This document shows, piece after piece, positions 7,736 through 55,672 of a DNA stretch of 64,000 nt. Both the position numbers and the translations under genes were made by a program. The DNA is taken from positions 682 through 64,681 of the forward strand of contig CAYXSN010000007.1 of assembly GCA_964467655.1 (NCBI GenBank). Direction: 5' to 3'. Position 1 is the first letter of the stretch. Every line of letters begins with the position of its first letter. The notes below the pieces were generated by a model. It did not search any database. It saw only the letters and a list, made by a program, of their open reading frames with translations, and was not told the DNA's origin. The stretch comes from an uncultured Candidatus Saccharimonadales bacterium. Lineage in GTDB: Bacteria > Patescibacteriota > Saccharimonadia > UBA4664.

Positions 7736-7792
7736 CATCTTGATCGCACCATAAGCGGGATGGTATAATCAAAGCCATAACCAAGGTTGTGC

Positions 7793-26567: not shown

Positions 26568-26643
26568 CCGGCGAGATAGCTCAGTTGGTAGAGCAGTGGC
26601 CTGAAGAGCCTCGTGTCCTCGGTTCGAGTCCGAGTCTCGCCAC
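26568..26643 (+). tRNA. tRNA-Phe (anticodon GAA)
   Basis: cloverleaf folded by hand: acceptor GGCGAGA/TCTCGCC, D-arm GCTC-AGTTGGTA-GAGC, anticodon loop CTGAAGA, T-arm CTCGG-TTCGAGT-CCGAG, encoded CCA. Confidence 0.85.
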
Positions 26644-26644
26644 C

Positions 26645-26722
26645 ATGCGGGTGTAGCTCAGTTGTTAGAGCGCTTCCTTGCCAAGGAAGAGGCCCAGGGT
26701 TAGAGTCCCTGTACCCGCACCA
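26645..26722 (+). tRNA. tRNA-Gly (anticodon GCC)
   Basis: acceptor GCGGGTG/TACCCGC, anticodon stem CTTCC/GGAAG with loop TTGCCAA, T-arm CAGGG-TTAGAGT-CCCTG, encoded CCA; 1 nt after tRNA-Phe. Confidence 0.85.
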
Positions 26723-28421: not shown

Positions 28422-28679
28422 GCCCACCTCCAATCTGCCGCAAGAGTTTTTGTCCGTTTGTCTGATCCTCGACGATACGGTCGATAATCAGATTTGCGAT
28501 CACAAAGACCCTCTCCTCGGTCGGCATCGTGCAGTACACGGGCACTTCACCTGTATTTTTGTTTTTAGAACCTTTGAGTCTCCCCATTACGTTTGCCCTC
28601 GTTTAGCTTGGATTTTCGCCAAAGCAAAATAAGCTTCGGCTCACAAATGGCGAAACGTTAACAATCGACTAAGCTATGA

Positions 28680-35035: not shown

Positions 35036-35643
35036 CCCCATACGTCGAAGACACCTACGCTAAGATTGCTCAAGCCTACACCGATGAATTCTTTGACGAC
35101 AAAGCTGACCTGCCATTTGTAGATAAGCTCGTGAGTGTTCTGTCGCAGGGTGCGAGAATACTCGATATTGGCAGCGGCCCCGGTCAGTTCTCAAAATACC
35201 TCACAGAAAAAGGTTTTAAGGTCGAGGGCATTGACGTCTCTGACGAAATGTTAGTTATCGCCCGGTCGAAAGTTCCCGAGGTAGGGTTTGCGAAGATGGA
35301 TATGCGAAAGCTAGAATTTGCAGATCACGCATTCGATGGCATTTTGGCCGCGTATTCCATTATCCATATACCGACGCCAGAGTTGCCGGGTGTACTGGCC
35401 GAGATGAAGCGTGTGCTCAAGCCCGGAGGCTATGCGCTGTTCATCGTGCAGGAAGGCGAAGCCGATCAGGTTGTTGATGAACCACTGGCCGAGGGTGAGA
35501 AAGTATTTATGAACTTTTTTAGCACGGGGCGCTTGAATGACTTGTTGACATCTGCTGGCTTGAAGATCATCGAGCAGCGCATAGGCGAGCAAACCAGCGA
35601 AGAAGTACTGAGCAGCAAGGTCATATTCACCCTAGCCAGCTAG
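35032..35643 (+). CDS. Class I SAM-dependent methyltransferase
   Basis: motif I ILDIGSGPGQFS, motif post-I VEGIDVSDEML, LKPGGYALF. Confidence 0.65.
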   Translation: MTPYVEDTYAKIAQAYTDEFFDDKADLPFVDKLVSVLSQGARILDIGSGPGQFSKYLTEKGFKVEGIDVSDEMLVIARSKVPEVGFAKMDMRKLEFADHAFDGILAAYSIIHIPTPELPGVLAEMKRVLKPGGYALFIVQEGEADQVVDEPLAEGEKVFMNFFSTGRLNDLLTSAGLKIIEQRIGEQTSEEVLSSKVIFTLAS

Positions 35644-38555
35644 ACATCAACCTTATGCCAGGCCATATTCTCCTCATCCCACCCCACTGTCCCACGATGC
35701 AGTTTCTTGAAGGCGTCACGAACCTTCTTGCTGATTGAGGGGTTGCCAAATTCAGTCTGCTCGATGCAACCGCCGCCAAAGTTGTCGTTGAGGTGGTGGG
35801 CTGCCGCTTCTTGCTTGAGCGAACCGGCCTGATTAATCTCGTCCATCATCCACTGAGCGGCCTTTTGGTGGATGGTTCTCGTTCGTTTACGTTTCATTCT
35901 ATCCTGCTTGGGTGGTCTGTCGGCTGTGCTTGCAGGGCTGGCCTTGGCGGCGGGTTTTTGTTGTGGCTGAGGCTTTTCCTGCTCAGGTTTCGGCTCCGGT
36001 GCAACATACTTAGTTGTGTACTTTTCCCTCGAAGACTGAATAACCCTTTCGGCTATTTCATCGCTGCCAGAATTATCAAGCAGCAACGTCTCGCCTGATA
36101 GCGGTTCCTGCGATCTAATGGCCGAGGCTCGCATGTAGAAGTTGTAGGGCGACAGGTTAGCAATATGGCCCTCCTGGAGATATGGGCTGAATAGGGGCAG
36201 CAAAAGTTGCTCATCGGCCGGGTTGCCGGTGCGGAAGCAAATGACAGTGCCAACGTTTGCCAAGATGATATTGACCATCTTTTGGTCGTCTTGCTGTGAC
36301 GTTGACTGTTCGGCCATTGTTAGGAATAGTTTGTACTTGCGGGATTCGGATAGCATCTGCACAAATGACTGCGTGGCGAAGTTTTGGAACTCGTCCACGT
36401 ACAGGTAAAACGGTTTGCGTTCAGCTTCTTTGATCCGGGCACGGCGTAGAGCGGCCATCTGGATTCTAGCTAACACGGCGATGCCGAATAACTCTGATGT
36501 ATCCTCACCGAGCAAGCCTTTCGAGAAGTTGCAAATTAGGATTCTTCCGTCCAGGATGTCGTCGAAGTTGATGGTTGAGTGTGGCTGCTCCAAGACCCGC
36601 TTAGCAGATGCCGAGAACAGGAACCGTCCAATCTTAGCGGTTATACCGGCGACCATTTTGACTTGTTGGAACCCACCGGCCTTGCCAAGCTCGTTCTTCC
36701 AGAAATTTTGCAGGTCTTCGTTTTCGAGTGTAGCTACGACGGTTTTGCAGTAATCGGGGTCGTTGAGGAGATTATAAACGGTGAACAGTGTTGCGTCTTT
36801 GACGGTAAGCGCCGTCTGGATCGCATTACGCAGCACATACTCAATACGGTGGCCGCCCGTGTCATCCTCGGAAAATATCTTGCGGAACATCGAGACGACG
36901 GACTCGGTAACGATATCCTTCTCGCGGATAAGTTCGTCCCCCTCAAGCCCTGGCGTCAGCTCCAGCACGTTTAGGCCGACATTGTAAGCTAGGTCGTCAG
37001 GATTAAAGTAAATAACATCATCTATGCGATTCTCCGGGATACGCATTAACAACTCCTGGGCCAAATCGCCGTGCGGGTCAATGACGCCAAAGCCTTTGCC
37101 GCTCTGTATATCTTGCACGGCGGCGTATTTAATCAAGGTGGTTTTGCCTGCGCCGGTTCCGCCAACGATGAACGCATGCCGTTCGCGCTCAGCCTCAATC
37201 AGACCGATAGGCATGGTGCTACCCTGGTGGTTGTTCTTGCCGAGAATGACATCAAAATCATGAGCATCGGCGTGGTTCTTTATGGCTAACGGTGCGGCTA
37301 GGGTTCGGCTGAGTGACTTAACCACATCGGCATTGTAGTTGGTCTCGCTATTGGGGAAGTGATAAATACTCGCAACCTCGGCGGCAGACAGTAGGCTGGC
37401 GTATTTGTTGAAAACGCCCGGTAGCCGGTGCTCAAACATAAACAAGCGATACTTGTGACGGACGCCATAGGGGAAGTTCAGCCTGCTTACGATGGCCTGG
37501 TATTTTGTCTTGTAGACATTAAACGACTTTCGTATGTCATTTGCCCTGGCGAGGCTGACACGGTCGTTATCGGCCACCACTAGCGCACGAATATTGGTGC
37601 GGTACAGATTGCTATTGAGCTTTTCGCTAACCTGCATCGCCAGCGTATTTTCCAGCGATCCCATCATGCGGGCGGGCTTAATCCCTTGTGCTACCTGGTG
37701 ATGGTGCTGCATCGTGGTGTGATGGGTCTGCTTGCTGTAGTTTGATGGCCCGTGGTGAATCTCGCCCACGGTGTCAATCATCGAGAACATAGCCGAGTTG
37801 ATACCCTGGACAAGCAAGCCACCCAGTGATCGGCGCTGTTTTTTGCCAAGCGCATCCAGGTGTTCCTTATTGTGCAACAGCCGGTTGCTGATCTTATCGG
37901 CACTACGTACTTTAGTTGGCGACAAGATAAGCTGAAGCACCATAACTTCGCCGGGCTTAAGGTTAGCCATCGTACCCAGTAGATAGTCGACGGGGTCGCT
38001 CTGGTCATATGCTTGCTGGTCTTTTAGCGGGTAGTAACGCTCCTTCAGATGCAGCTCTAGTAACTGGGCACGCAACCGCTGCGTTTTGGTAAGGTAATCA
38101 TCAACCTCTTTGACCCGAATATTGCTGTCGAATGACGCAATATCATGCACAAAGCTTTCGCGGCGCTCCTTGGGGACGCAGAAAATAAACCGTATTCCCT
38201 GTTCGCGTATACCAACTATTTCAGCCGCAAAGGCCGACTTGTGCTGCAAGACTTTATCGCTGATGGTGCGTATCGTCTCAAAGCCGTGCAAATCGGAAAA
38301 GAATAGCTGAGTTGCTTGCGGTGACTTGTCGGCAAAGGCGGGCGGCGTTAATTCTAGAAAGACCGTATCTCTGCCAAGCAGACGGCGGAGATCAAATAAC
38401 CGTAGGGCTACGATAACAATTAACTTAACCAGGAAAAATGCCGCAACCGCCAGAACTATGCCGAGCCCGATCTTTGGTAGCGAATCGACGAGCGTGTTCA
38501 AGAAATGCATGAAGCTGTTGAATTGTTCCTGAGTAGGAAAGTCTGTTTCCATCAC
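35640..38555 (-). CDS. virD4: Type IV coupling protein (VirD4/TraG/TrwB family) with long Lys/Pro-rich C-terminal tail
   Basis: 971 aa; N-terminal TM; Walker A FIVGGTGAGKTT; Walker B LYVDEFQNF; TraG-D_C-like region; convergent 3-nt overlap (CTAG) with methyltransferase gene. Confidence 0.8.
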   Translation of the reverse strand: MMETDFPTQEQFNSFMHFLNTLVDSLPKIGLGIVLAVAAFFLVKLIVIVALRLFDLRRLLGRDTVFLELTPPAFADKSPQATQLFFSDLHGFETIRTISDKVLQHKSAFAAEIVGIREQGIRFIFCVPKERRESFVHDIASFDSNIRVKEVDDYLTKTQRLRAQLLELHLKERYYPLKDQQAYDQSDPVDYLLGTMANLKPGEVMVLQLILSPTKVRSADKISNRLLHNKEHLDALGKKQRRSLGGLLVQGINSAMFSMIDTVGEIHHGPSNYSKQTHHTTMQHHHQVAQGIKPARMMGSLENTLAMQVSEKLNSNLYRTNIRALVVADNDRVSLARANDIRKSFNVYKTKYQAIVSRLNFPYGVRHKYRLFMFEHRLPGVFNKYASLLSAAEVASIYHFPNSETNYNADVVKSLSRTLAAPLAIKNHADAHDFDVILGKNNHQGSTMPIGLIEAERERHAFIVGGTGAGKTTLIKYAAVQDIQSGKGFGVIDPHGDLAQELLMRIPENRIDDVIYFNPDDLAYNVGLNVLELTPGLEGDELIREKDIVTESVVSMFRKIFSEDDTGGHRIEYVLRNAIQTALTVKDATLFTVYNLLNDPDYCKTVVATLENEDLQNFWKNELGKAGGFQQVKMVAGITAKIGRFLFSASAKRVLEQPHSTINFDDILDGRILICNFSKGLLGEDTSELFGIAVLARIQMAALRRARIKEAERKPFYLYVDEFQNFATQSFVQMLSESRKYKLFLTMAEQSTSQQDDQKMVNIILANVGTVICFRTGNPADEQLLLPLFSPYLQEGHIANLSPYNFYMRASAIRSQEPLSGETLLLDNSGSDEIAERVIQSSREKYTTKYVAPEPKPEQEKPQPQQKPAAKASPASTADRPPKQDRMKRKRTRTIHQKAAQWMMDEINQAGSLKQEAAAHHLNDNFGGGCIEQTEFGNPSISKKVRDAFKKLHRGTVGWDEENMAWHKVDV

Positions 38556-39097
38556 GGCTCCTTGTCATGGATAAAGTTATAGTCAAGCGCGTCAGCGGCG
38601 GTGAATGATCGAGTACTTACTACATCAAGCCCTTTGACGTTCATCTCCGAGATTGTCCAGGCTTTGGTAGCTGGATCAACGGCCGTCACGTAAGCTACAT
38701 GTCCTAATCCATGAGCTGAGTTAGCGGTCTGCATGATCGCGCCAACCGCCGGTATCTGGTCAACTGCATAGCCTTGCAACTTGGCATAGTAAGCCCAGGT
38801 GGCTGCATCGCCCCACGTATTAGGAATAGGGTCGCCCGCATTTTGCCGCTGAATAAACACCCAATATGTACAGTTGCCCCAGGCGTAGGTGTTGTCTGCG
38901 GATGAGGAGCCCGTATATAGCACGTCATCACCGGAATCTCCGGCGGTTACGCCACTTTTGAACAAATCGTCCATGTTCGTGATTGAGGCCACGGCCGCAG
39001 CAGGCAGTATCATAGCAACAATAAGCGTGCCAAGAATAACACCAGCCTCTATCTTGAACGAAACGAGCCTTTTACCGCGGCGCAGCAACGATATCAT
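38552..39097 (-). CDS. CHAP-domain peptidoglycan hydrolase (T4SS-associated cell-wall lytic enzyme)
   Basis: 181 aa; N-terminal TM; Cys (YAWGNCTYWV) and His (GLGHVAYV) of CHAP domain; ATGA overlap with coupling-protein gene. Confidence 0.7.
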   Translation of the reverse strand: MISLLRRGKRLVSFKIEAGVILGTLIVAMILPAAAVASITNMDDLFKSGVTAGDSGDDVLYTGSSSADNTYAWGNCTYWVFIQRQNAGDPIPNTWGDAATWAYYAKLQGYAVDQIPAVGAIMQTANSAHGLGHVAYVTAVDPATKAWTISEMNVKGLDVVSTRSFTAADALDYNFIHDKEP

Positions 39098-40830
39098 GGC
39101 GCATATAGCTCGGCCGGATTGGTAGTGATAAGCGGGTGTTCCTTGGGCGACGCAATGACCCTGACAGCAACATGATTCTGGTCGGCAATAATCAGGGCAT
39201 CACCGCGTCCGCAAGTCAGTAAGAAACTCTCCTCATATTCGCTGAGATTGAATTCGGACGCGACACCTTTGATGGTTGTAGTGTCTTGTTTCATCAAGAT
39301 GCGCAGGCTACTTTGCGAGGCGATGGCACGGCCGTATTCACTATGCAGGAAGTCGTTCGCCTGCTGCGAAATGATGGATACGCCCAAGTAGTATTTGCGA
39401 GCACGTCGAACCAAACCAGATACAAAGCGGGCGCTTTCTTCATGCTCCAGCAGCATCCAGCCCTCGTCAATTACGAGCAACCGTTTTTCGGGCTTGGCCT
39501 TCACCTGATTCTGTACGAAGTTGGCGATAATCATCATCATGATCTGGCGCAGTGATTCGGGCAGGTCTTTGATGTCGAAGATAACCAGCCGGTTGTCTAG
39601 CTCGATATTCGTCTGGGCATTAAAGACGTGCGCCAATGTGCCGCTGATATATTTCTCTAGCCGTTCCCGTAGTTGGAGCTGGCCCAAATCCTTCAGCTCG
39701 GCATACAAGTCTTCAAGTAGTGGCGGTTCCTTTTTGGCTTTGGCGTAAATTTTTAAGATGGCTTTGTCTACGGCCGCCTTTTCGCGCGAGCTCAAGCCCT
39801 CGGCCATGAGCGAAATTACTTCGGTCAAATCCTGCGCATGCTCGGAAAGATCGCTTGCCGAGTGCGAGGTTGTGGCTAGATCGAACGGGTTGATCTTTTC
39901 GGCCGATTTTGCCGACAGTTTCACGTAGGTGCCGTTAACTGATTCTGCCAGGTTTTTGTACTCCCGCTCCGGGTCGATAACGATGACTTTGGTGCCTTGC
40001 ATGAGCTGACGCAAGATCTCAACCTTGGTGGCGTAGCTTTTGCCACTGCCGGATTGCGCAAATACGATGCTGTTGGCGTTATGTAGACTGAACCGATCAA
40101 GAATGACCAGCGAGTTGTTGGACTTATTGACACCGTATAAGATGCCTTTTTCCTGCACCAGCTCGGACGACATAAAGGGGAAGGCTAGTGCAGCCGATGA
40201 GCTGTCCAAGTTGCGCTTTTGGTTCAGGTCATCTTCGCCACGCGGCAAAACAGATTGCAGGCCCTCAAGCTGCTGGTAGCGTGCGGTCTTGATACTGAAT
40301 AGCCGCGCCGCTAGAGCGTTTTCGAGCATCTTGGTAACTTTGTTGAGCTCATCAAGCGAATCGGCCCGCAGGTTTACATAAATCGCCATCTGAAAGAGCT
40401 TTTCCTGGCCGCGCTGAATCTTGTCGCGCAACTCCATAGCCGATTCCAGCGGGTCAGTGATCTCGGAGCCGACAATCGCACCTTTGCGCATCATTGAGCG
40501 GCGGGTAGACTCTAGCTCGGTGATCTTGCGGTGCAGCTTTGGCAAAGCTAGCTGCGCATCAACTTCATGGATGTGGTAGGCGATGTCGGCGCTGTGGTTA
40601 AAGTGAATGAGGCTGTCGAGCCAGCCGGACGACGCCACAAACGGGTAGCCGGAAATAAACAGTGTACGGAGATACTGGCCGTCAAGCACTAAATGGTCGG
40701 CTTGTTCCTCCAGGCCCTCATACGAAAGGGCATCAACCTGGTCTTGCTCACCAAAGCTAAAAGCTAGCTCGCGCGGGCGTTCGTCTCGCCGCTTCTTCCA
40801 CTCGGCAATTTTTACCATAGGCTCGATCAT
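39094..40830 (-). CDS. virB4: VirB4-family T4SS ATPase, C-terminal (ATPase) part
   Basis: 578 aa; Walker A FAQSGSGKSY; Walker B LLVIDEGW; conserved VirB4 C-terminal motifs. Confidence 0.8.
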   Translation of the reverse strand: MIEPMVKIAEWKKRRDERPRELAFSFGEQDQVDALSYEGLEEQADHLVLDGQYLRTLFISGYPFVASSGWLDSLIHFNHSADIAYHIHEVDAQLALPKLHRKITELESTRRSMMRKGAIVGSEITDPLESAMELRDKIQRGQEKLFQMAIYVNLRADSLDELNKVTKMLENALAARLFSIKTARYQQLEGLQSVLPRGEDDLNQKRNLDSSSAALAFPFMSSELVQEKGILYGVNKSNNSLVILDRFSLHNANSIVFAQSGSGKSYATKVEILRQLMQGTKVIVIDPEREYKNLAESVNGTYVKLSAKSAEKINPFDLATTSHSASDLSEHAQDLTEVISLMAEGLSSREKAAVDKAILKIYAKAKKEPPLLEDLYAELKDLGQLQLRERLEKYISGTLAHVFNAQTNIELDNRLVIFDIKDLPESLRQIMMMIIANFVQNQVKAKPEKRLLVIDEGWMLLEHEESARFVSGLVRRARKYYLGVSIISQQANDFLHSEYGRAIASQSSLRILMKQDTTTIKGVASEFNLSEYEESFLLTCGRGDALIIADQNHVAVRVIASPKEHPLITTNPAELYAP

Positions 40831-41372
40831 GACTGCCCCTTTCGTATGTATGAGTTGTTAAGCAGCTCGGCAACCTGGTCGCTAATAGGCTGGCGCTTTG
40901 CCTGGGCAGGGTTGTAAAAGGTATGGAATAGATCAAGCAGCTCAAGATTGGCGAGCTGCCTTGTCCGGATTCCCAAGCGCATGAGCCCTTTGCTGACCAT
41001 ATCGGCATTAAGCGCTAATTGTTCTTTGGCGGTGTCGAAGTCACGGGCGGTATAAGGCAGGACGACATAGAAATGGCGCGACAGGATTCGGTTGTCTGCA
41101 ACCAGGCTTTGAACGAATTCCGTGTAGTTTTCGATTTGGTTGCGGTAAATTTCTTCCTTCTCGTCGTGCAGCAGCTCTTGGGTGTCGGCTAGGTACTTAT
41201 CCATATCCAGCTCGCGGATGCGAACGACGATCTCTAGCGGGCACGGCAACGAATCAAGAAAACTTTCGTACGTGTCAATGAGGGTATCCTGCTCCTCTTC
41301 GCTCTTGAGCTCGAAGTTAACCGGTGATACTTCAAGCACGACGCGGTATTGGTCACGGTGCAGCAAGAGCAT
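40827..41372 (-). CDS. VirB4-family N-terminal domain encoded as a separate ORF (ORF opens with TTG at 41501; ATG 41372 avoids overlap with upstream gene)
   Basis: MLLLHRDQYRVVLEVSPVNFELKSEEEQDTLIDTYESFLDSLP = CagE/TrbE/VirB4 N-terminal signature; stop TGA overlaps ATG of the ATPase ORF (ATGA). Confidence 0.55.
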   Translation of the reverse strand: MLLLHRDQYRVVLEVSPVNFELKSEEEQDTLIDTYESFLDSLPCPLEIVVRIRELDMDKYLADTQELLHDEKEEIYRNQIENYTEFVQSLVADNRILSRHFYVVLPYTARDFDTAKEQLALNADMVSKGLMRLGIRTRQLANLELLDLFHTFYNPAQAKRQPISDQVAELLNNSYIRKGQS

Positions 41373-41394
41373 ATTGCTCTTAACGCCTTTGATA

Positions 41395-41931
41395 TTAATT
41401 TGTTGCCGTGCCGAGGCTTTCGTCTGGGACTTCCGTAAGATGGACACGCAGCTCTCCTTTCTTGTTTGTGGTGAAGTGAATATTTGCAGTGGGGTTGGCA
41501 AGCAGGTCTTCTATTCGCACACGCTCGGCGGTGGTCAAATTGGCTTTTCTTGTCAGTGCCATAATTGGGGCGGCTACTTCCTCGGCTGCATCTTCATCTG
41601 GTATCATCTGCGACAGGGCTTCTCGGGTGTTGGGATCGTTTTTGTTGAACAGATAGTATTTTGGTCGCGCATTGTAGCGGATCAGCGTGATAGCCCAAAA
41701 CAGCAGAATCTTGCCTTTGATCCGGATTGCTAATAGTGCACTGAGCGACGCGACACAGATAATCAGCACGAGCTTGTAGATCGCGTAGTTAAAGAAGGGC
41801 GGCAAGATCACAAATATGGCGCTCCCGCCAAATATGGGTGATACCAGTAGCAAGAGCTGCGACAACCCAAGTCTGCCTGCAATCCTATCTTCGACAGTGG
41901 TGATCTGAGATGGAACAATGGTGGTTCTCAT
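41395..41931 (-). CDS. Small two-TM membrane protein, VirB3/PrgI-like candidate
   Basis: 178 aa; two adjacent TM helices; position immediately upstream of VirB4 as in Gram-positive T4SS operons. Confidence 0.4.
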   Translation of the reverse strand: MRTTIVPSQITTVEDRIAGRLGLSQLLLLVSPIFGGSAIFVILPPFFNYAIYKLVLIICVASLSALLAIRIKGKILLFWAITLIRYNARPKYYLFNKNDPNTREALSQMIPDEDAAEEVAAPIMALTRKANLTTAERVRIEDLLANPTANIHFTTNKKGELRVHLTEVPDESLGTATN

Positions 41932-43430
41932 TGCCGCTTCCTTCCTTTTGTTGACGGTTTATCTCCAGCATGGCTCGGGCCATCGGCGGCGGGCGTCTTG
42001 CCCGGACGGCTCGTTACCTGCGAGGTTTCGCCGGTGCTAAGCCCGGTTGATTTTGCGCGCGACCTGGTCGAATTGCGGTCGGCTGAAGAGTTGTTACCAG
42101 AGCGGTTCGTGTCGTCATTGCCATAGACTGGCTTCTTCGAACGCTTCTTCTGTGTGGTTTCCTCGCTGCTATTTTCGTCTTCTTCACTTCCGCCACTGCG
42201 TCGCTTTCGCCGACGCGGCCTGCGGAGATGCTCAAGGTAGCTCACGCCTCGTATGAACGACCCGGCCATCTCTCGCGCGGCATGGGGAGTGCTGGCGGCG
42301 TGCGACAACTCTTGCATGACTCCTTGCGTTTTGAGCAAGGCCAGCACGGTAGCTAGGCCTACGATGAGTGCCATAAGGGTATTTGGCTGACCGGCAGTAC
42401 TGTTTTGTAACATACCGCTAAAGATCGATGAAGCCAGCTGCATAATCACTACCTGGACAAACAGTACGAAAATAGTCATCAGGTAGGTTTTGAGTGCGCT
42501 GATTGCAAAATCCTTAAAAGCTGGCAGCAAGTACAGCAGCGCGACGATGGGTGATAATATCGCGCCAATGTAGAGCGTAATCAGACGCATAACGTAGTAA
42601 ACGAGCAACATGACCGTCAGGACTAAAAAGGCGAGCATGACCAGCAGCCCACCCAAGCCAAGGTCAGTTGATTTCTTGGTTATATCCGAGAGTAAATCCC
42701 AGATTGAGGTACTCGGAAAACCGGCTTGCAGCGCATGCACCATGCCATTAGATAGCCCAATGACCGCATCGATGGCAAACAGTGATGTATTCATGAGCAG
42801 GAACACAAACACTAGCTGTGGCAGAATTTGCTTGATGTCGAGTTCTTCAAAGCCAAAGGTGCTGAAGCTCATAACGTGGAAGCCGAGCAGGGCAACCACT
42901 AGGACAAACAACGCATCAGCAATGCCCACGACGGCTAGCCATAGGTTGAATACGTTCGAGTTTTCTCCCATAAGCGGCGTGCTGTTTGTAAAGTAGCCAA
43001 GCGCTTGCACAAAAGGCTCGCCGATTGACTTTATGATGTTCTGAATGACATGGATGATCGCCTTGGTAACAACATCGAAGAGGCTGGTTGAGGTGTCTTG
43101 CTGGATCGGTGCGAGCGTTGGTAGCCTATCGGTGACTGTACCGACCGATGAGCTATAAGCGTGGCTCAAAATTGCTGTGAGCGTCGCGGCTGCAATTACC
43201 AGCACCAGCCCAATGAGAGCATTCTTGATGATGCGCTTGGCGTGTTCCAGGTTCTCGGGCTTGCCTTTACTGGCCATGTATTCGATACCGCCAGTAACCA
43301 GGAAAAACGTCGAAACGAGCGTGGCAATAATGCAGAGGGTTGCAATCGCCGGGTTTAAAAACGACCGCATAGCATTAGATGCGGCTGTTGCGTCTGCGAA
43401 CAGTGCTATAGGCAGGCCAGCATGGAACAT
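41928..43430 (-). CDS. virB6: VirB6/TrbL-like polytopic membrane protein with N-terminal VirB2/TrbC-pilin-like domain and Arg/Lys/Ser-rich disordered C-terminal tail
   Basis: 500 aa; 6-7 TM helices; N-terminal ~100 aa paralogous to the pilin at 43434..43775 (GGIEYMASKGKPENLEHAKR...VLVIAAATL vs GGLGYITSSGNPEHLERSKH...AIVIAAFVI). Confidence 0.6.
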   Translation of the reverse strand: MFHAGLPIALFADATAASNAMRSFLNPAIATLCIIATLVSTFFLVTGGIEYMASKGKPENLEHAKRIIKNALIGLVLVIAAATLTAILSHAYSSSVGTVTDRLPTLAPIQQDTSTSLFDVVTKAIIHVIQNIIKSIGEPFVQALGYFTNSTPLMGENSNVFNLWLAVVGIADALFVLVVALLGFHVMSFSTFGFEELDIKQILPQLVFVFLLMNTSLFAIDAVIGLSNGMVHALQAGFPSTSIWDLLSDITKKSTDLGLGGLLVMLAFLVLTVMLLVYYVMRLITLYIGAILSPIVALLYLLPAFKDFAISALKTYLMTIFVLFVQVVIMQLASSIFSGMLQNSTAGQPNTLMALIVGLATVLALLKTQGVMQELSHAASTPHAAREMAGSFIRGVSYLEHLRRPRRRKRRSGGSEEDENSSEETTQKKRSKKPVYGNDDTNRSGNNSSADRNSTRSRAKSTGLSTGETSQVTSRPGKTPAADGPSHAGDKPSTKGRKRQ

Positions 43431-43433
43431 AGC

Positions 43434-43775
43434 CTATTTCCCGAACGCGCTTGTCGCCAAATCTGTCACGATGTTGCTGATTACGAAGGCGGCAATAACT
43501 ATCGCTAGGCCGATGCCGGAGTAGAGCAGGGTGTGCTTTGACCGCTCCAAGTGCTCGGGGTTGCCCGAACTGGTGATATAACCCAGACCACCGACAACAA
43601 AAAAGCCGGTCGCTACCAGACCGGCGAGGCCCGAAATGACCTTAATCACACTTTTGATAAATGTTTCAACCTGAGCGACGCCAGCGTCGGCGGCAAAAGC
43701 TGGGTGCGCCAGAACGAGCGGTGCGCCCAATGCCACGACAAGTATCACGATTTTTATATCTTTGAGTCGGCTCAC
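43434..43775 (-). CDS. virB2: VirB2/TrbC-family T4SS pilin
   Basis: 113 aa; signal peptide ending AFA; hydrophobic-Gly-rich core and second TM typical of TrbC/VirB2. Confidence 0.6.
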   Translation of the reverse strand: MSRLKDIKIVILVVALGAPLVLAHPAFAADAGVAQVETFIKSVIKVISGLAGLVATGFFVVGGLGYITSSGNPEHLERSKHTLLYSGIGLAIVIAAFVISNIVTDLATSAFGK

Positions 43776-43893
43776 GACAAACCCCCGCTCCGTTCTTTTA
43801 AGTCACTATCTCACTACATATACAACAGACAGTTTACACATGGTAAATATTATTTCAAAGCATAAGCAAAATTCTTAATGTATAATCTGTAAC

Positions 43894-48479: not shown

Positions 48480-48852
48480 CGCCTACCTCAGTGGCTATGC
48501 TTTGGTTCCAAAAAATGAGCAAAATAAATACAGCCCGCACGGCTGCATATTGCCGGTTTGTCATAATTTCCTAGCTTGGATTTATACTTGTATCTGGACA
48601 CACAGAACCCGCCGCCAGCGGGTTTGCACCCCATGACCCTTTCGAGCCATGACCAAGCTAAGATGCTGAACGACGGGATCAGTACCTAGCTTGGCTTTTA
48701 GACCATGCCATTGCAAGCAATGGTTTAGGTCTTTGAATTGTCCGCCCTTTTGAATTGTGGGCTTATACCTAATATATGATACCGGCTTGATAATGACAAG
48801 CCCTAACATTTGTTAGTGGTTGCTAACTTATGTTAGTCCTACGCTTAATATA

Positions 48853-49936: not shown

Positions 49937-50422
49937 TTATACTATGTGCTTGTAAAGTTTCGTAAATTGGATCATCTGTTGTGCGAGTGCCTTCGATTCG
50001 ACCCGGCGCATGATCTCGCAGCTATCGTTTTGCGAAAGGATATTGAGGCTCCCTTCAAACAAAATCTTCCTATCCAGTATAGCCAGCTTGCGATGATGTC
50101 CGCCAGTATAAAGAACCGTTGCGCCGAGATCAAACAGATTACCTAGCGTTTCGTACGCTTCGCCGCGCATATACTCATCTTCGTGCTCGTCGGGGTGCTT
50201 GGTGTTGACGACGATTTTGACACCGCGTGCCCGCAATTTACGCAAAGTTGGCATAAGCCTGGCTAGCCGACGTGAAGTGACGAACGGACTTTCGATTATG
50301 ACCTCTTTAGTGCAGCGCTCCAGATCGCGGATAAACCTCGGGTAGAAGGTATCTTGGTCAAGCAGGCTGGATGTAGGCAGCTCGGTAGGGGACGGGGCGG
50401 CAAAGTTAAAAGGCCTAAGCAT
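49937..50422 (-). CDS. Phospholipase-D-superfamily (HKD) nuclease, Nuc-like
   Basis: HKD motif HHRKLAILDRKILFEGSLN; start taken at ATG 50420-50422 (ORF opens at 50440); ATG overlaps stop of small ORF 50415..50555 (ATGCTTAG). Confidence 0.6.
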   Translation of the reverse strand: MLRPFNFAAPSPTELPTSSLLDQDTFYPRFIRDLERCTKEVIIESPFVTSRRLARLMPTLRKLRARGVKIVVNTKHPDEHEDEYMRGEAYETLGNLFDLGATVLYTGGHHRKLAILDRKILFEGSLNILSQNDSCEIMRRVESKALAQQMIQFTKLYKHIV

Positions 50423-50555
50423 CGCTCGCCTCCATGTCATTCAAATAAACAACTTCACCATTGATGAAAGCCAGCCCGAACCGTTCAAGTTTTGAGTGTA
50501 TCAACCGTAACTCAGCCTCAAAGTGGTTCCACCTACAATCCATTAGGCGCACCAT
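50415..50555 (-). CDS. 46-aa small protein, family member 1 (MVRLMDCRWNHFEAELRLIHSKLERFGLAFINGEVVYLNDMEASDA)
   Basis: four intact paralogs of identical 46-aa length in window; translationally coupled to PLD nuclease gene. Confidence 0.5.
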   Translation of the reverse strand: MVRLMDCRWNHFEAELRLIHSKLERFGLAFINGEVVYLNDMEASDA

Positions 50556-50642
50556 TTTAGAGTTACAGATAGAAAAGCGTTCCAGATCGGGCGCTTTTTT
50601 ATATTGAGACCGCATCGTAATCTGTTGCATTGGTTAGAGTCC
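50525..50642. repeat. Composite repeat unit U1: box1 (GGTTCCACCTAcAATCCAtTaGgCGCACCAT = start of small ORF, antisense) + terminator hairpin AAAAGCGTTCCAGATCGGGCGCTTTTTT (50573-50600) + box3 ATATTGAGACCGCATCGTAATCTGTTGCATTGGTTAGAGTCC
   Basis: near-identical to U2 (51482-51600) over ~75 bp; partial copies at 52415, 53476, 54355, 55367, 55539. Confidence 0.8.
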
Positions 50643-50682
50643 TTTATGGCTGAAAATCTCACTGGTTGATATACTTGTATTC

Positions 50683-51375
50683 ATGTTTAGATCTGTCGCC
50701 TTTTTTGATATCGACAACACCATGTATGACGGGTTTTCTTACTTTGCACTTTTAGAAAGGCAGGTTAGTGAGGGCCTAATAAAGCAGGAGACACTTACCG
50801 CTGCACTGGCGAGTATGCAAAAATATAAGGCCAAGACCCAGGATTATGAAACGACAATCGTTGAGATGCTCGATATTTATGCCGCAGGCTTAAAAGGCGC
50901 CGAACATACTACTGTCCTCGAATCAACGAGGCAGTTTTACGAAAAATCGGACAAATTCTTCGCCTATGTTAGCCCAACCATTAAAGAGCTAAAAGGCTCA
51001 CATGATATCGCCCTCGTGACTGGCGAACCCCAGTTTGTCGCCGAGGCGGTGAAGGATCTCTTCGGTGCGAACTCGTATCATTCTACTGAATATGAGGTTA
51101 TTGACGGGGTATTCACGGGCCGTATTAAGTCCTACCTTGCCTCGCGTCACGAAAAGCACGATGCCATCAAGCATCTCATGCAAGGTCATAGCGTCAAAAA
51201 TTCTTTTGCGTTTGGAGATTCTGAGGGAGATATAGAAATGCTGCGAGCAGTGGAATATCCTATATGTCTCAATGCCACTGACGGCTTACGTGCAATTGCC
51301 ACCGAGCAGGGCTGGAATATGCCCGACATTGACGCGGTGACCAAACTTGTCGCAAGTCTTACTAAGGCGGCCTAA
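50683..51375 (+). CDS. HAD-superfamily hydrolase (HAD-IB/SerB-like phosphatase)
   Basis: motif I FFDIDNT; motif IV FGDSEGDIEML. Confidence 0.7.
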   Translation: MFRSVAFFDIDNTMYDGFSYFALLERQVSEGLIKQETLTAALASMQKYKAKTQDYETTIVEMLDIYAAGLKGAEHTTVLESTRQFYEKSDKFFAYVSPTIKELKGSHDIALVTGEPQFVAEAVKDLFGANSYHSTEYEVIDGVFTGRIKSYLASRHEKHDAIKHLMQGHSVKNSFAFGDSEGDIEMLRAVEYPICLNATDGLRAIATEQGWNMPDIDAVTKLVASLTKAA

Positions 51376-51512
51376 AACTCATTGTCGTACTCTTGACCTG
51401 AGTCGAGTACAATCCGACCGCCGATATTTATTAAGCCAAATAGGACCAATTTTTCATACATCAGGATGCTTATCTCGATGTGGTTCCACCTATAATCCAG
51501 TTGCCGCACCAT
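51372..51512 (-). CDS. 46-aa small protein, family member 2 (MVRQLDYRWNHIEISILMYEKLVLFGLINIGGRIVLDSGQEYDNEF)
   Basis: hand translation; below ORF-track length cutoff; shares N-terminal MVRxxDxRWNH with paralogs. Confidence 0.45.
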   Translation of the reverse strand: MVRQLDYRWNHIEISILMYEKLVLFGLINIGGRIVLDSGQEYDNEF

Positions 51513-51600
51513 TTTCAGAATTACAGATAGGAAGGCGTTCCAGGTCGGGCGCTTTTTTATATTGAGACCGCATCGTAATCTGTTGCATCGGTTAGAGTCC
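51482..51600. repeat. Composite repeat unit U2 (box1 + terminator hairpin 51532-51557 + box3)
   Basis: see U1. Confidence 0.8.
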
Positions 51601-51652
51601 TTTCTGTTTGATGGCCAAGCTCGTTGTGTAACTCTTATGATAAAATGTCAGT

Positions 51653-52300
51653 ATGCAGCTCGCGCGACGCTTTAGAAATTTGAGTAATCGCTATCCATTC
51701 GCTGGGCCACTTATGTGGCTGCTGACGTTTCAGTTCTTCATTGCGGAGATTGTGACTGCGAACAGTTGGGCCAAGTTGCCCTACAGTTATCGATTGAACG
51801 CCATTAGCGATCTGGGCGCAGTTGGATGCGGTCTATTCGATGACGACCGTTTCGTGTGCTCGCCACTTCATGGAATTATGAATGGCTCGTTGATCCTACT
51901 GGGCATCACGATGGCCGTAGGATCGGTGCTCCTGTACACACGCTTACAAAAGAGTAAGGTTGGGTTTAGCCTGATGACATTAGCAGGCATTGGCGCATTC
52001 TTGGTTGGAATATTCCCCGAGGACACGGTCTTTTGGGTGCACATCGTAGGTCAAGACCTGGCGTTCGTATTCGGGAACGTTGCTTTGATAGTTTTTGGTT
52101 TTACACTGCCGGCACCGCGCGTATTTCGTTGGTATAGCATTACATCGGGAACAGTAGCACTCGTAGCACTCGTATTATTTTTATCGCATCATCGCCTCTT
52201 CTTGGAACTTGGCGGTATGGAGCGAACCGTAGCCTATCCGCTCCTCCTTTGGCTGATAGTAGCGGGTGGATATTTTGCAACAAGACGAGTTCGTAACTGA
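51653..52300 (+). CDS. Polytopic membrane protein, DUF998-like
   Basis: 215 aa, ~6 TM; N-terminal ...LNAISDLGAV motif. Confidence 0.4.
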   Translation: MQLARRFRNLSNRYPFAGPLMWLLTFQFFIAEIVTANSWAKLPYSYRLNAISDLGAVGCGLFDDDRFVCSPLHGIMNGSLILLGITMAVGSVLLYTRLQKSKVGFSLMTLAGIGAFLVGIFPEDTVFWVHIVGQDLAFVFGNVALIVFGFTLPAPRVFRWYSITSGTVALVALVLFLSHHRLFLELGGMERTVAYPLLLWLIVAGGYFATRRVRN

Positions 52301-52304
52301 ATAC

Positions 52305-52445
52305 CTAAGCATCGCCTTCCTCAACTTCGCAAAGATAAACGACCTCTCCACTCATGAAAACTAGCCCTAATTGTTCAAGCTTTGACTGTATCAACCGCAG
52401 GCCAGACTCTAGGTGGTTCCACCTATAATCCACTTGCTGCACCAT
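52305..52445 (-). CDS. 46-aa small protein, family member 3 (MVQQVDYRWNHLESGLRLIQSKLEQLGLVFMSGEVVYLCEVEEGDA); ORF track extends it to 52487 with an alternative start
   Basis: paralog; same length and same terminal GATGCTTAG as member 1. Confidence 0.5.
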   Translation of the reverse strand: MVQQVDYRWNHLESGLRLIQSKLEQLGLVFMSGEVVYLCEVEEGDA

Positions 52446-52500
52446 AAACGAAATCACCGTTTTTAATGAACCCGTTATAGGGTTCATTTAGTTTATAAGA
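52415..52500. repeat. Partial repeat unit U3: box1 (52415-52445) followed by two hairpins (AAACG-n7-CGTTTTT; AATGAACCC-gttata-GGGTTCATT) instead of box3
   Basis: seen directly. Confidence 0.6.
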
Positions 52501-52579
52501 CACTTTTGAAACAGGTTTCTTCTACTCTCAGCAAGACGGTAGTTACCTGTATAATGAGGGTAACCTATGGGGTACCTTC

Positions 52580-53317
52580 TTGAAAAACAATAGCTACTAC
52601 AAAGTCACGCAACTTGACACCGATTTGTGGGCTTTTGAAGATGTAAAAAGTAGCGAGGACTCAATAAGCTATCTTTTGTGTGGCAAAAACAAAGCATTAG
52701 TGTTTGATACGGGGCTTGGCTTAAGCCCCGTATTGCCGCTAATTAAAGAAATAACTGAATTACCGCTCATAGCTTGTCTGTCACACTGGCACTTTGACCA
52801 TTCAGGAGGGGCACATGAGTTTGATGAGGTGATTGGCTGGCATTCACAACAGATGAAAAATACTAGTGAGAACGGCGTTAGCTTAGATGTCATTAAAGCT
52901 AACGTTAGCACTACCTTTTGGAAAAGTATTGGAAGAGGTAATTATCAAACAAAAGGTTTCCCACTTCAGATGATTAGCCAGGAACAAACACTAGACTTAG
53001 GAGGTTTTGAACTTAAAGTTTTACATACGCCTGGCCATACTTCTGACTCTATTTGTCTATATGAAGGACAGAAGAAGTGGTTATTCGCAGGTGATAGCGC
53101 ATACCCTGGTCCAATATATTTGCATTTTGCTGATTCTGATACTAATACGTACCAGGATTCTTTAACAAAGCTTGCGAAGCTTGATGTCGAAAGTATTTTC
53201 CCAGGCCATAACTCTCTGAAAACATCAAAAGACTTGCTGGTTGAGTTAGATAAAATGCTAACTAACCCCTCCTACAAGTCACAACTTTTCCCTGAACTGA
53301 GTATTCGAAAGTCTTAG
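52580..53317 (+). CDS. MBL-fold metallo-hydrolase
   Basis: HWHFDHSGG (HxHxDH), downstream H and D ligands. Confidence 0.7.
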   Translation: MKNNSYYKVTQLDTDLWAFEDVKSSEDSISYLLCGKNKALVFDTGLGLSPVLPLIKEITELPLIACLSHWHFDHSGGAHEFDEVIGWHSQQMKNTSENGVSLDVIKANVSTTFWKSIGRGNYQTKGFPLQMISQEQTLDLGGFELKVLHTPGHTSDSICLYEGQKKWLFAGDSAYPGPIYLHFADSDTNTYQDSLTKLAKLDVESIFPGHNSLKTSKDLLVELDKMLTNPSYKSQLFPELSIRKS

Positions 53318-53475
53318 ATCACCTGGATGGGGCTTTATTTTTGATCTAGTGTGAGTCCCGTCCCTTACCTACTAAGTAAATAATTCCGATAAGGGACTTT
53401 CAGTATTTTCCTCCAACGGGCTATTTCATCCCTGATGGGGTGTAAACTTTTTTGGAGCTGCTGTACCAGTTTAGT

Positions 53476-53556
53476 TTTACAGATAAGTGGATGTTCCAGA
53501 TGAGGCGTCTATTCACGTTGAGCTCGACATATAATCTGCTACCTTGGTTAGGCCCT
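53476..53556. repeat. Partial diverged repeat unit U3b (hairpin region + box3-like ...ATAATCTGCTACCTTGGTTAGGCCC) lacking box1
   Basis: alignable to U1 50563-50645 at ~65% identity. Confidence 0.5.
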
Positions 53557-53619
53557 TTCTGTGCGCCGAGCTGCGATTTTAGCTTGACATAGTAAGTACA
53601 CGTAAGTACAATTAAAGTT

Positions 53620-53871
53620 ATGGTACGAGCAATAGTCACGAAATCAGGGAATTCATATGCGCTTCGAGTGCCGAAGCGATATATTGACGACAATAAACTA
53701 CGGCTAGGCGATGTGGTAACTCTTGAGGAGCCACTTACGCTGCAGAGGAATGCTCTGGAAGCGCTCGTGAGGCAGGGGAAAACACACGGAGCGATTAGCG
53801 GAATTGCTGACCCGGTGAAATGGCAACGCCAGCAGCGGCAATCAAGCGACCCCTGGGAAGAACTAAAGTGA
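53620..53871 (+). CDS. AbrB/MazE/SpoVT-fold antitoxin
   Basis: MVRAIVTKSGNSYALRVPKRYIDDNKLRLGDVV swapped-hairpin pattern. Confidence 0.6.
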   Translation: MVRAIVTKSGNSYALRVPKRYIDDNKLRLGDVVTLEEPLTLQRNALEALVRQGKTHGAISGIADPVKWQRQQRQSSDPWEELK

Positions 53872-54239
53872 TTTTGCTAGATAGCAATATAGTAATCTAT
53901 CTCCGTGACCCGCAATGGGGGGAGAAGATTTTCAATCAAATTGATGGAGAAAGACTAGCAACCTGTAACGTAATAATTTCAGAAGTCCTGGGCTTTAAGG
54001 GGCTACCAAAAGCTGACGCTGATCATTTCGAGCGCTTTTTTGTAACCATGAAAAACTTTCAGTTTGATGAGGCGGTTACAAAGATGGTGATAGAGCTTAG
54101 GAGAAGGTATGTAATCCAATTGCCCGATGCAATTATTGCAGCTTCAGCTCTAGTAAACGATCTCACACTTTATACTCATAATGCAGAAGATTTCGAAAAG
54201 ATTTCAGATCTGCTACTCTTTGATCCGCTTGCACCATAG
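53868..54239 (+). CDS. vapC: PIN-domain toxin (VapC-like)
   Basis: GTG start overlapping antitoxin stop (GTGA); VILLDSNIVIYL (first acidic residue), further conserved D/E positions. Confidence 0.6.
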   Translation: MILLDSNIVIYLRDPQWGEKIFNQIDGERLATCNVIISEVLGFKGLPKADADHFERFFVTMKNFQFDEAVTKMVIELRRRYVIQLPDAIIAASALVNDLTLYTHNAEDFEKISDLLLFDPLAP

Positions 54240-54244
54240 AGACT

Positions 54245-54385
54245 CTACTTGAGGCAGCCGAACGGGTACTCGACATACACGTGACTACCATTTATACAGG
54301 CGATCCCGAATCGCTCAAGCTTAGAGTGTACTAGCCGTAATCCAACCTCAAGGAGGTTCCACCTATAATCCACTTGCTGCACCAT
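54245..54385 (-). CDS. 46-aa small protein, family member 4 (MVQQVDYRWNLLEVGLRLVHSKLERFGIACINGSHVYVEYPFGCLK)
   Basis: hand translation; below ORF-track cutoff. Confidence 0.45.
   Translation of the reverse strand: MVQQVDYRWNLLEVGLRLVHSKLERFGIACINGSHVYVEYPFGCLK
54355..54385. repeat. Repeat box1 copy U4 (GGTTCCACCTATAATCCACTTGCTGCACCAT)
   Basis: identical to U3 box1 over 31 nt. Confidence 0.7.
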
Positions 54386-54402
54386 TCTGAAATAACAGGT
54401 AT

Positions 54403-54430
54403 GACACATCGAATAATGTGTCTTTTGTTT
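54403..54430 (+). terminator. Intrinsic terminator (GACACAT-cgaata-ATGTGTC followed by TTTTGTTT)
   Basis: seen directly. Confidence 0.55.
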
Positions 54431-54538
54431 CTCGAGACTACTACATCTACCTCTGTACCGCTGAGTGTAAGTCTCATTTGCTTAAAATGCTCTGCGTACG
54501 CTACGATTAAGTTGAATTATTCATAATCGCGCGCGGGG

Positions 54539-55249
54539 ATGCCTATGAGAAAGACCGATCAGGCAGGCTTCAGCATCATTGAAGCATTACTTATCTTAGT
54601 GGTTGTTGGCATCTTAGGTTTCACAGGTTGGTCTGTATACCATTCTCGAACGGTTACTAACAAAGATTACAGTTCATCAGCTTATACGCAGACCACGTCG
54701 CCTGATCTATATAAGGGTTGGAAATCCGCTAGCCTTAAGTATGAAAAAATGAGTTTTAAATACCCAAACACATGGCAAATCAGCGACACCTCTCAAGATG
54801 AGGTAGGGACGGGCGGTACTGCAACGCCAGGCGCTGATGACGTTACGCTGACAAGCCCTACTGGTCTTTACGTGAGCATTATGTCGGGCCAGGCAGGCGT
54901 TGACACCAACGGCTCGCTGATAGGCTTATCAACCTCGCGACCCATCAACACGCTTGGTGGTAGTTATTTCCTCGTTTATTACACACATAAGGCTCAGAGT
55001 ACTACCGAAGCACGGGGGGCTTGCATTAATAAGACTGCAAGCTCTACGGGTGGCCCGTCGATAGCCAGTAAAAATATCCAACTGGCAGGCATAGCAAGCG
55101 GTGCTGCTATATCTGCAGCTAATCTAATTTGTATTGGCTACCCAGCGCCAAACAGCACATCCCCCGTGCCAGTGAAGCCTGTGTCGGCGTTTGAGCAGGA
55201 CGCGTCATACAACGACGCCAAACTCATTCTTGAGTCACTTACGTATTAG
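54539..55249 (+). CDS. Type IV pilin-like protein (prepilin-type N-terminal cleavage/methylation signal)
   Basis: MPMRKTDQAG/FSIIEALLILVVVGILGF: Gly-Phe cleavage site, Glu+5, hydrophobic helix; Thr/Ser-rich globular part. Confidence 0.55.
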   Translation: MPMRKTDQAGFSIIEALLILVVVGILGFTGWSVYHSRTVTNKDYSSSAYTQTTSPDLYKGWKSASLKYEKMSFKYPNTWQISDTSQDEVGTGGTATPGADDVTLTSPTGLYVSIMSGQAGVDTNGSLIGLSTSRPINTLGGSYFLVYYTHKAQSTTEARGACINKTASSTGGPSIASKNIQLAGIASGAAISAANLICIGYPAPNSTSPVPVKPVSAFEQDASYNDAKLILESLTY

Positions 55250-55290
55250 TTTAGATAGTATAAATGTAACTCCCTACACTTACTTAGAAG

Positions 55291-55571
55291 CTAAATGCTC
55301 TCGATAGGGCTCATCCAATATTTCTCTCCATCGAGCCAGTTCAACAGTAATAGAATGTAAACATTTTCCCACTTGCAGCACCAGGAATAATCTACAGATA
55401 AGAAAGCGCACCAGAACGGGCGCTTTTTGGTTCTGTACTGTAATCTGTTGCAGTGGTTAGGGTGCTTACCGGATCTTAAATCGTAAGTAAAGCCTAGTTT
55501 GTCGAGTTTTGCGTACATACGCATCAGACTTGCCACAAACTGATTCCACCTAAGATCCACCTCGCGCACCA
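55291..55571 (-). CDS. Small-protein family member 5, extended (MVREVDLRWNQFVASLMRMYAKLDKLGF...) reading through repeat U5; ORF track opens it at 55707
   Basis: N-terminus matches family; lacks the usual stop after ~46 codons, so possibly a degenerate copy. Confidence 0.3.
55367..55464. repeat. Repeat unit U5 (truncated box1 CCCACTTGCAGCACCA + hairpin 55401-55427 + box3-like GTAATCTGTTGCAGTGGTTAGGGTGC)
   Basis: seen directly. Confidence 0.6.
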
Positions 55572-55614
55572 TTATATTGTTCGTAACCTTCAACCGGTTG
55601 CATTGGTCAGCGCC
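55539..55614. repeat. Repeat unit U6 (box1-like GATTCCACCTAAGATCCACCTCGCGCACCAT + box3-like GGTTGCATTGGTCAGCGCC, no hairpin)
   Basis: seen directly. Confidence 0.5.
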
Positions 55615-55672
55615 CCTTGCGCGCGCAAAACTCACCACACAGAAAGCCAAAGTATCTTGGTAAACTAGTTGT

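Follow-up and report, generated by a model that had tools for sequence, protein, structure and literature searches.

A 64,000-nt stretch of contig CAYXSN010000007.1 (GenBank assembly GCA_964467655.1) from an uncultured Candidatus Saccharimonadales bacterium, referred to below as the window, carries a type IV secretion system (T4SS) operon on its minus strand. The first two genes of this co-directional operon code for a free pilin of the VirB2/TrbC type and, directly downstream, for a pilin-VirB6 fusion, a 500-aa protein in which a pilin-like module and a VirB6/TrbL-like body share one open reading frame (ORF). Both ORFs, and the peptides quoted from them, were found on the minus strand exactly where an original prediction made from the letters alone had placed them. 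The features of the two genes are listed below, with their basis in parentheses.

43831..43878, minus strand: AT-rich stretch ahead of the free pilin gene, matched at two sites by a sigma-70-like promoter consensus, the likely operon start (consensus scan only)
43434..43775, minus strand: free VirB2/TrbC-type pilin gene, 113 aa, GTG start (PF18895, PF04956)
43431..43433, minus strand: 3-nt spacer GCT, which separates the TAG stop of the pilin from the ATG of the fusion (sequence)
41928..43430, minus strand: pilin-VirB6 fusion ORF, 500 aa, ATG start (PF18895 and TrbL models)
43389..43430, minus strand: fusion aa 1-14, short uncharged remnant at the leader position (alignment of the two copies; an upstream stop bounds the ORF)
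43155..43388, minus strand: fusion aa 15-92, pilin-like module (PF18895; AlphaFold2 helices 15-53 and 58-92)
43083..43154, minus strand: fusion aa 93-116, variable low-confidence linker (predicted local distance difference test score, pLDDT, below 50 for 94-116; mean pairwise identity 27%)
42222..43082, minus strand: fusion aa 117-403, VirB6/TrbL-like polytopic body (PF04610, PF19590, AlphaFold2 helices, hydropathy)
41928..42221, minus strand: fusion aa 404-500 and stop, disordered Lys/Arg/Ser tail, presumably cytoplasmic (pLDDT below 50; identity 15%)

The free and the fused pilin modules were the only two detectable in the window, and several lines of evidence showed that they are related. 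In a single BLASTP comparison, residues 26-112 of the free pilin aligned with residues 9-97 of the 500-aa ORF, with 33 of 89 positions identical (37%) and an E-value of 8e-14. The free pilin exceeded the Pfam cut-offs for both PF18895 (T4SS_pilin; 47.3 bits, cut-off 26.6) and PF04956 (TrbC/VirB2; 42.6 bits, cut-off 27.9). The fused module matched PF18895 at residues 26-86 (35.8 bits, likewise above the cut-off), and PF04956 was not detected in it. AlphaFold2, run on a 72-sequence alignment of the fusion (mean pLDDT 62.7), predicted an N-terminal hairpin of helices 15-53 and 58-92 (pLDDT 69-81), followed by a low-confidence linker (94-116), eight more helices and a disordered tail. In addition, a hidden Markov model (HMM) built from fused modules only matched the free pilins of 79 other genomes with E-values of 1e-14 to 1e-21, indicating that the resemblance is due to homology and not to chance. 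The duplication of a pilin module with in-frame fusion of the second copy, as originally proposed, was thus borne out.

The two copies differ at their N-termini. The free pilin has a predicted leader at about aa 1-28, composed of MSRLKDIK, a hydrophobic run and AFA/AD (the slash marking the putative cut), and then a two-helix hairpin according to heuristics and hydropathy. Its hydrophobic helices lie at about 39-56 and 83-100 and are joined by a short basic loop, and its GTG start is preceded by the Shine-Dalgarno-like GGAGCGGGGG. Lys or Arg is present within the first 12 aa in 96% of the free copies versus 20% of the fused copies. A hydrophobic run of at least 9 residues ahead of the module was found in 0% of the fused copies, and the lineage of the window retains only a 12-14-aa uncharged remnant. 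In the fused module, transmembrane (TM) helix 1 lies at about residues 28-49 and TM helix 2 at about 71-92. They are separated by a Lys/Arg-rich loop (50-70) with five such residues; the first 27 residues of the ORF carry hardly any charge. The loop bears the motif Y-x-(T/A)-S-x-G-x-P-x-x-L-x-x-A-K, and the invariant residues of the module include Y51, G56, P58, K65, and N70. An extended form of this motif, F-F-x-V-x-G-G-x-x-Y-x-T-S-x-G-x-P-x-x-L-x-x-A-K, is common to the fused and free pilins and recurs in outline in actinomycete pilins. The charge pattern fits a VirB2-like topology with the N-terminus out, the loop in and the C-terminus out, in which helix 2 would export the following segment.

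The remainder of the ORF agreed with the original description of a VirB6/TrbL body with a charged tail. The TrbL model PF04610 matched residues 206-364 at 23.9 bits, just under its cut-off of 25.9, and PF19590 (TrbL_3) is among the precomputed Pfam matches for the fusion and most of its homologues, where it is not flagged as weak. The body contains eight predicted helices, at least five of which are strongly hydrophobic, and the gene adjoins the PrgI/VirB3 and VirB4 region. The hydropathy of the body is ambiguous (5 versus 6 segments), and hydropathy predictions over-call TM helices in VirB6 (PMC12857230), so the topology of the body is compatible with the proposed orientation but is no proof of it. 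An unfused relative, P0236, has a signal-peptide or lipobox-like N-terminus ahead of its VirB6 body, which agrees with an external N-terminus of this body. Residues 372-500 of the fusion contain 27 Lys+Arg, and residues 404-500 were predicted to be disordered. Among 81 orthologues, mean pairwise identity was 51% for the module (56% for its loop and 62% for its helix 2) and 56% for the VirB6 body, while it was 27% for the linker and 15% for the tail. The variable linker contains a conservation island, the motif LPTLxPI with the invariant proline P104 (43119-43121), and the variable tail contains a TGET motif (aa 466-469; 42023-42034) in which T466, G467, and T469 show conservation of 90% or more. 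Both motifs may serve docking or processing. A sortase-like reading of LPTLxPI was rejected, as the motif does not fit LPXTG.

It is nearly certain that the fusion, found in the chromosomal T4SS operon of an environmental Saccharibacteria lineage, is real and conserved. HMMs built separately from the module and from the body were applied to a species scan of one genome per GTDB species, which gave 80 loci with 40-77% identity. Module and body were found in one ORF in all 80 of these Saccharibacteria loci, and no stop codon between them was seen in any homologue, so the fused module is not a stand-alone small protein released from a leader. Exactly one free pilin of about 113 aa is located directly upstream on the same strand in 79 of the 80 loci, the exception being a contig end. 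The identical 500-aa protein also occurs on 13 contigs of different assemblies with the same neighbours. A word-indexed search returned 1285 related 90%-identity clusters, the best 120 of which were all 410-508 aa long and almost all matched PF18895 and the TrbL models. A filter-free phmmer search with body residues 100-400 against 1.84 billion 50%-cluster representatives yielded 504 matches at E <= 0.001, and among the best 150 of them every N-terminally complete protein down to about 30% identity bears the module. Close relatives that appeared to be unfused were rejected as N-terminally truncated fragments, contig-edge genes (P0199) or a frameshift (P0187/L085, 4768-5100); the last lies within the module on a long-read contig and yields a spurious 51-aa ORF.

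These results bear directly on the possibility that the fusion is an artefact or a pseudogene, in which the stop of the second pilin was erased by a mistake in sequencing or assembly or by a mutation that arose recently in this genome. This is conceivable a priori, and the two ORFs happen to share a frame here. With the identical ORF recovered on 13 contigs, and the fusion present in every species-level locus down to 40% identity and, among the best 150 matches, in all complete cluster representatives to about 30% identity, the probability of an artefact is negligible. The assembly error considered in the original prediction, to be recognized by homologues with a stop between the modules, is contradicted by the same observations. 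The junction in the window reads ...GGG AAA TAG GCT ATG TTC..., and in the relatives the spacer between the pilin and the fusion varies from -4 to 31 nt. The idea that a conserved read-through of the stop codon links the free pilin with the fusion was rejected, since the spacer is in frame in only 38 of 78 relatives. The tight spacing suggests that the two genes may be translationally coupled.

Comparison of the two copies indicated that the duplication is old. Fused and free modules are 34% identical both within a genome and between genomes, while fused modules share 49% identity with each other and free modules 68%. The equal identity within and between genomes shows that the copies are old paralogues that have not undergone gene conversion and that each has been constrained separately. 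The module is missing from VirB6 relatives at a greater distance (23-31% identity). In Haloechinothrix salitolerans (Actinomycetota; GC 68%), the gene for a 104-aa PF18895 pilin overlaps by 4 nt the gene for an unfused 400-aa TrbL_3 VirB6, which is followed by PrgI, VirB4, and a type IV coupling protein (T4CP) (L086 4690-6203, GCA_042428975.1). A second high-GC locus, L088, has the same unfused order. These outgroup pilins score about equally with the "fused" and the "free" HMMs, as expected if the duplication came later. Two distant metagenomic fused proteins, P0162 and P0163 (506 and 498 aa), have a basic leader of about 95 residues and a hydrophobic segment before the module, indicating that a complete pilin gene was captured, and their leader-pilin-VirB6 layout likely represents an earlier stage of the fusion. 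Judging from the outgroups, the likely history is that a pilin gene adjacent to virB6 was duplicated and that the proximal copy then lost its stop and its leader. The suggestion that a second pilin had lost its stop therefore holds for an ancient event, as the separate genes of the actinomycete relatives indicate, but not for a recent change in this genome. The closest relatives outside the Candidate Phyla Radiation (CPR) belong to Actinomycetota, the hosts of cultured Saccharibacteria, which hints at gene exchange. As a separate observation, according to a recent review Gram-positive T4SSs have no VirB2-type subunits, Patescibacteria excepted, whereas L086 and L088 combine a PF18895 pilin with a TrbL_3 VirB6 in a Gram-positive actinomycete.

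Downstream of the fusion, the operon continues with the following genes.

41395..41931, minus strand: PrgI/VirB3-like membrane protein, 178 aa (PF12666 PrgI, E 2.8e-4, below cut-off)
40827..41501, minus strand: TrsD-like protein, distantly homologous to the N-terminal region of VirB4 (PF11130 TraC_F_IV, 2.4e-5; PF26593 TraC-like, precomputed)
39094..40830, minus strand: VirB4-family ATPase, 578 aa (P-loop_TraG 6e-27, AAA_10 2e-16, DUF87 1e-11)
38552..39097, minus strand: CHAP-domain cell-wall hydrolase, VirB1-like role (PF05257 CHAP, 8.8e-15; in 44 of 62 loci)
35640..38555, minus strand: VirD4-like coupling protein, 971 aa (TraG-D_C, T4SS-DNA_transf, TrwB_AAD_bind weak; in 50 of 62 loci)

Several neighbouring genes of the operon overlap by 4 nt, among them the stop of the fusion ORF with the start of the PrgI/VirB3-like gene, and the stop of the TrsD-like gene overlaps the VirB4 start (ATGA). 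Gene callers place the start of the TrsD-like gene at about 41447 (206 aa), and the whole ORF extends to up to 224 aa. In the 62 loci with enough flank, the PrgI/VirB3-like orthologue is always at the same place, and the order fusion, PrgI, TrsD, VirB4 is always kept. The two ORFs at 40827-41501 and 39094-40830 were also considered as a split VirB4. This was rejected, as they represent a TrsD and VirB4 pair that is separate in 62 of 62 related loci. TrsD is the commonest CPR T4SS component, and its pairing with VirB4 is typical of Patescibacteria (PMC12102498). The coupling protein (35640-38555, minus strand) additionally carries DUF6953 at its C-terminus (3e-20) and, in the precomputed matches, DUF8128, two domains of unknown function on a T4CP. 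The homologous loci are labelled almost all as Candidatus Saccharibacteria or Saccharimonadales.

The gene kit of a patescibacterial MPF_FATA-like T4SS, namely VirB4 with an adjacent TrsD, PrgI/VirB3, VirB6, and a VirB2-like pilin, is present here in a CPR genome. In the described systems of this type, including Southlakia epibionticum SEML1_0006-0019, the kit is likewise composed of a PF18895 pilin, VirB6, PrgI/VirB3, TrsD, VirB4, a hydrolase and a T4CP (PMC12102498; PMC10633639), and they share with the window a chromosomal location in a Saccharibacteria genome and more than one pilin paralogue. T4SSs of this type usually lack an associated relaxase. Unlike them, the window does not have an array of 2-11 separate pilin genes, but one free pilin and one within VirB6. 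S. epibionticum differs further, with six separate pilins and VirB6-like proteins of about 1000 aa, for which no PF18895 match is reported. The fusion is not mentioned in the papers on these systems (PMC12102498; PMC10633639), and the comparative one explicitly sought VirB3-VirB4 fusions only. No description of a VirB2-VirB6 fusion was found in the searchable literature, which excludes most subscription-journal papers. Thus, the T4SS in the window is a member of a known patescibacterial type, and its VirB2-VirB6 fusion is a new architectural variant that is common in one lineage. The fusion had been called unusual at the outset, which is correct relative to the T4SS literature but not within the Saccharibacteria lineage, where it is the rule. 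The architecture can be recognized in precomputed Pfam matches. Automatic annotation gives members of this 400-500-aa family the name "pilin" in some cases and "type IV secretion system protein" in others, and with this mixed naming, some of the "pilin arrays" counted in CPR genomes may be VirB6 fusions.

Other systems show partial similarities. In unfused Actinomycetota operons such as that of H. salitolerans (L086), the gene order is the same, and a PF18895 pilin lies directly upstream of a TrbL_3 VirB6; the actinomycete VirB6 is 23-30% identical to the VirB6 body in the window. These operons differ in having a single pilin, a VirB6 without the module (body from residue ~27), a GC content of 68-70%, and a VirB4 with its own TraC-like N-terminus in place of a separate TrsD. 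For the R388 Trw system (PMC9259494), a VirB2-type hairpin beside the N-terminal part of VirB6 at a 1:1 ratio has been proposed as a transient state. In contrast to the window, VirB2 and VirB6 are separate proteins there and belong to a diderm machine with VirB5 and VirB7-10, whereas here the link is covalent, the cell is monoderm and no VirB5 was seen. Chains of R388 TrwI/VirB6 appeared three times in the Foldseek top 16 for the fusion model, but the likeness is weak (best 7o3v_F, TM-score 0.52 on target, E 2.2). Extended VirB6 proteins and VirB3-VirB4 fusions are precedents for fused inner-membrane partners and for a VirB6 that tolerates extra domains (PMC12857230; PMC12624023), although the additions in extended VirB6 are central or C-proximal and hydrophilic (PMC12857230), unlike the N-terminal pilin hairpin described here.

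We give an even chance to the proposal that the module stays attached as a tethered pilin-like base or adaptor, with one copy per VirB6 protomer, and anchors or primes a polymer of the free pilin. The module is conserved nearly like the body (51% versus 56%) and keeps its loop motif while the linker and tail drift. In R388, a VirB6 pentamer forms the base of the five-start pilus with matched symmetry, the 50 strongest co-evolving pairs between VirB2 and VirB6 all fall on alpha1, the TM helix at the N-terminus of VirB6, and in the model five VirB2 are bound to five VirB6 and then levered to the assembly site atop VirB6 (PMC9259494; PMC12624023). The fusion joins exactly VirB2 and the N-terminal end of VirB6 at 1:1, which matches these recruitment partners. 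According to this proposal, the module would remain covalently attached to VirB6 and insert with the N-terminus out, the Lys/Arg loop in and the C-terminus out, so that the N-terminus of VirB6 would be delivered outside. Given a VirB6 pentamer like that of R388, the five tethered hairpins would equal one five-fold layer of a conjugative-type pilus and would lie beside the N-terminal part of VirB6, the site proposed for VirB2 recruitment in R388. Pilins of the VirB2/TrbC type build extracellular pili together with phospholipid. The free pilin, whose upstream gene is presumably coupled in translation to the fusion, might then dock on the tethered modules and polymerise to form a short pilus, or a conduit that crosses the monoderm envelope. 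In a more specific form, which we put forward tentatively, the pilin carried by each protomer of a pentameric VirB6 would provide a built-in first five-fold ring that nucleates and anchors the pilus or conduit of free pilin. Patescibacterial T4SS genes, including those for pilins, are essential for the epibiotic growth of S. epibionticum (PMC10633639).

Several points weigh against a tethered base. We infer all three of its elements, the continued attachment of the module, the VirB6 pentamer and the formation of a pilus. The AlphaFold2 model is of medium confidence only, with no significant Foldseek match in the PDB, and PDB sequences searched with a profile yielded no match. In the R388 model the pilus grows from its base, where each incoming pilin layer displaces the earlier ones outward. 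A tethered layer cannot follow this movement, so the module would have to belong to the platform, unless the structure is no more than a short stub. The layout of S. epibionticum, with its six free pilins and long VirB6-like proteins lacking a reported PF18895 match, is different (PMC10633639). Unfused relatives such as P0236 use a plain signal peptide or lipobox before VirB6, and the module may therefore be partly topogenic. Taken further, this leads to the view that the hairpin is no longer a pilin but an exapted membrane anchor or topogenic element, with helix 2 acting as an uncleaved signal anchor, the N-terminus outside and two TM helices added. The signal-like N-terminus that takes its position in unfused relatives is consistent with such a role, as are the absence of an own leader in the fused copy, its lower conservation compared with the free pilin (49% versus 68% pairwise identity) and its lost match to the canonical TrbC model PF04956. 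Yet conservation of the loop equals that of the VirB6 body (56%), and the pilin residues Y51, G56, P58, and K65 are retained in it, which suggests more than an anchor, for which hydrophobicity alone would be expected to be kept. Moreover, the leader retained before the module in P0162 and P0163 indicates that the module is not merely a substitute for a signal sequence, and the strict occurrence of one free and one fused copy in 79 of 80 genomes suggests a joint function. A pure anchor is thus rather unlikely.

VirB2-family pilins undergo processing, and the fusion could also be a polyprotein whose module is cut from VirB6 after insertion, perhaps by signal peptidase at the conserved S-H-A/Y (89-92), or in the linker, giving a second minor pilin and a VirB6 with an external N-terminus. 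The sequence KRIIK, TM helix 2 and SHA/Y together look like a signal peptide that ends in a -3/-1 site; A91 shows conservation of 90% or more, and Y92 does not vary. The linker (94-116), predicted to be disordered and bearing an invariant proline, would be another candidate site. However, a hydrophobic stretch of about 20 residues is more typical of a stable TM helix than of a cleaved signal. In addition, a stop codon would suffice to make two pilins, but it has been regained in none of the 80 lineages. Cleavage is accordingly an improbable explanation.

Some other features of the window were noted. A 577-aa ORF for a large serine recombinase adjoins tRNA-Phe and tRNA-Gly (26570-28433) on the opposite strand and overlaps the 3' end of tRNA-Gly by about 20 nt, and beyond this point the GC content drops from 55-61% to 43-52%, suggesting an integrated element. 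An integrative element carrying the T4SS was considered and rejected: the 3' end of tRNA-Gly was sought as an attachment-site repeat next to the recombinase, and no second copy was detected within 26-64 kb. The operon itself is chromosomally conserved in relatives. In the lowest-GC part of the window (50414-55617, plus strand; 43-47%), five unrelated same-strand genes (HAD hydrolase, DUF998, metallo-beta-lactamase, PIN, TPR-like) are spaced by a repeat of about 150-240 nt. Its copies are 61-96% identical and contain a TATAAT-like box and a terminator-like hairpin, GCGTTCCAGATCGGGCGCTTTTTT. The arrangement is reminiscent of a cassette array, or of a small-RNA or regulatory unit present in several copies; neither an integrase nor a clear attC core was seen. 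A full-length match to the LOOT RNA (RF03000) was found at 48620-48731 on the minus strand (76.6 bits, gathering score 46.4). The plus-strand ORF at 7787-14659 codes for 2290 aa with CBM_4_9 as its sole Pfam match, and is a candidate giant surface protein of the kind typical of epibiotic CPR bacteria.

T4SS pilus biogenesis is known mainly from one diderm structure, and the binding of VirB2 to the N-terminal helix of VirB6 was derived there from co-evolution and mutagenesis. The long-kept fusion together with a single free pilin provides independent comparative evidence that VirB2 and VirB6 act together at 1:1, and may be regarded as a "Rosetta stone" for their interaction. If the tethered-base proposal is true, it would represent a mode of pilus start or anchoring unseen in any studied T4SS, and the built-in pilin ring would lend independent evolutionary support to the R388 model of pilus biogenesis. 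Few machineries have been shown to be indispensable for the epibiosis of Saccharibacteria, and the T4SS is one of them; the fusion may offer a testable model for a pilus-like conduit in monoderm CPR bacteria.

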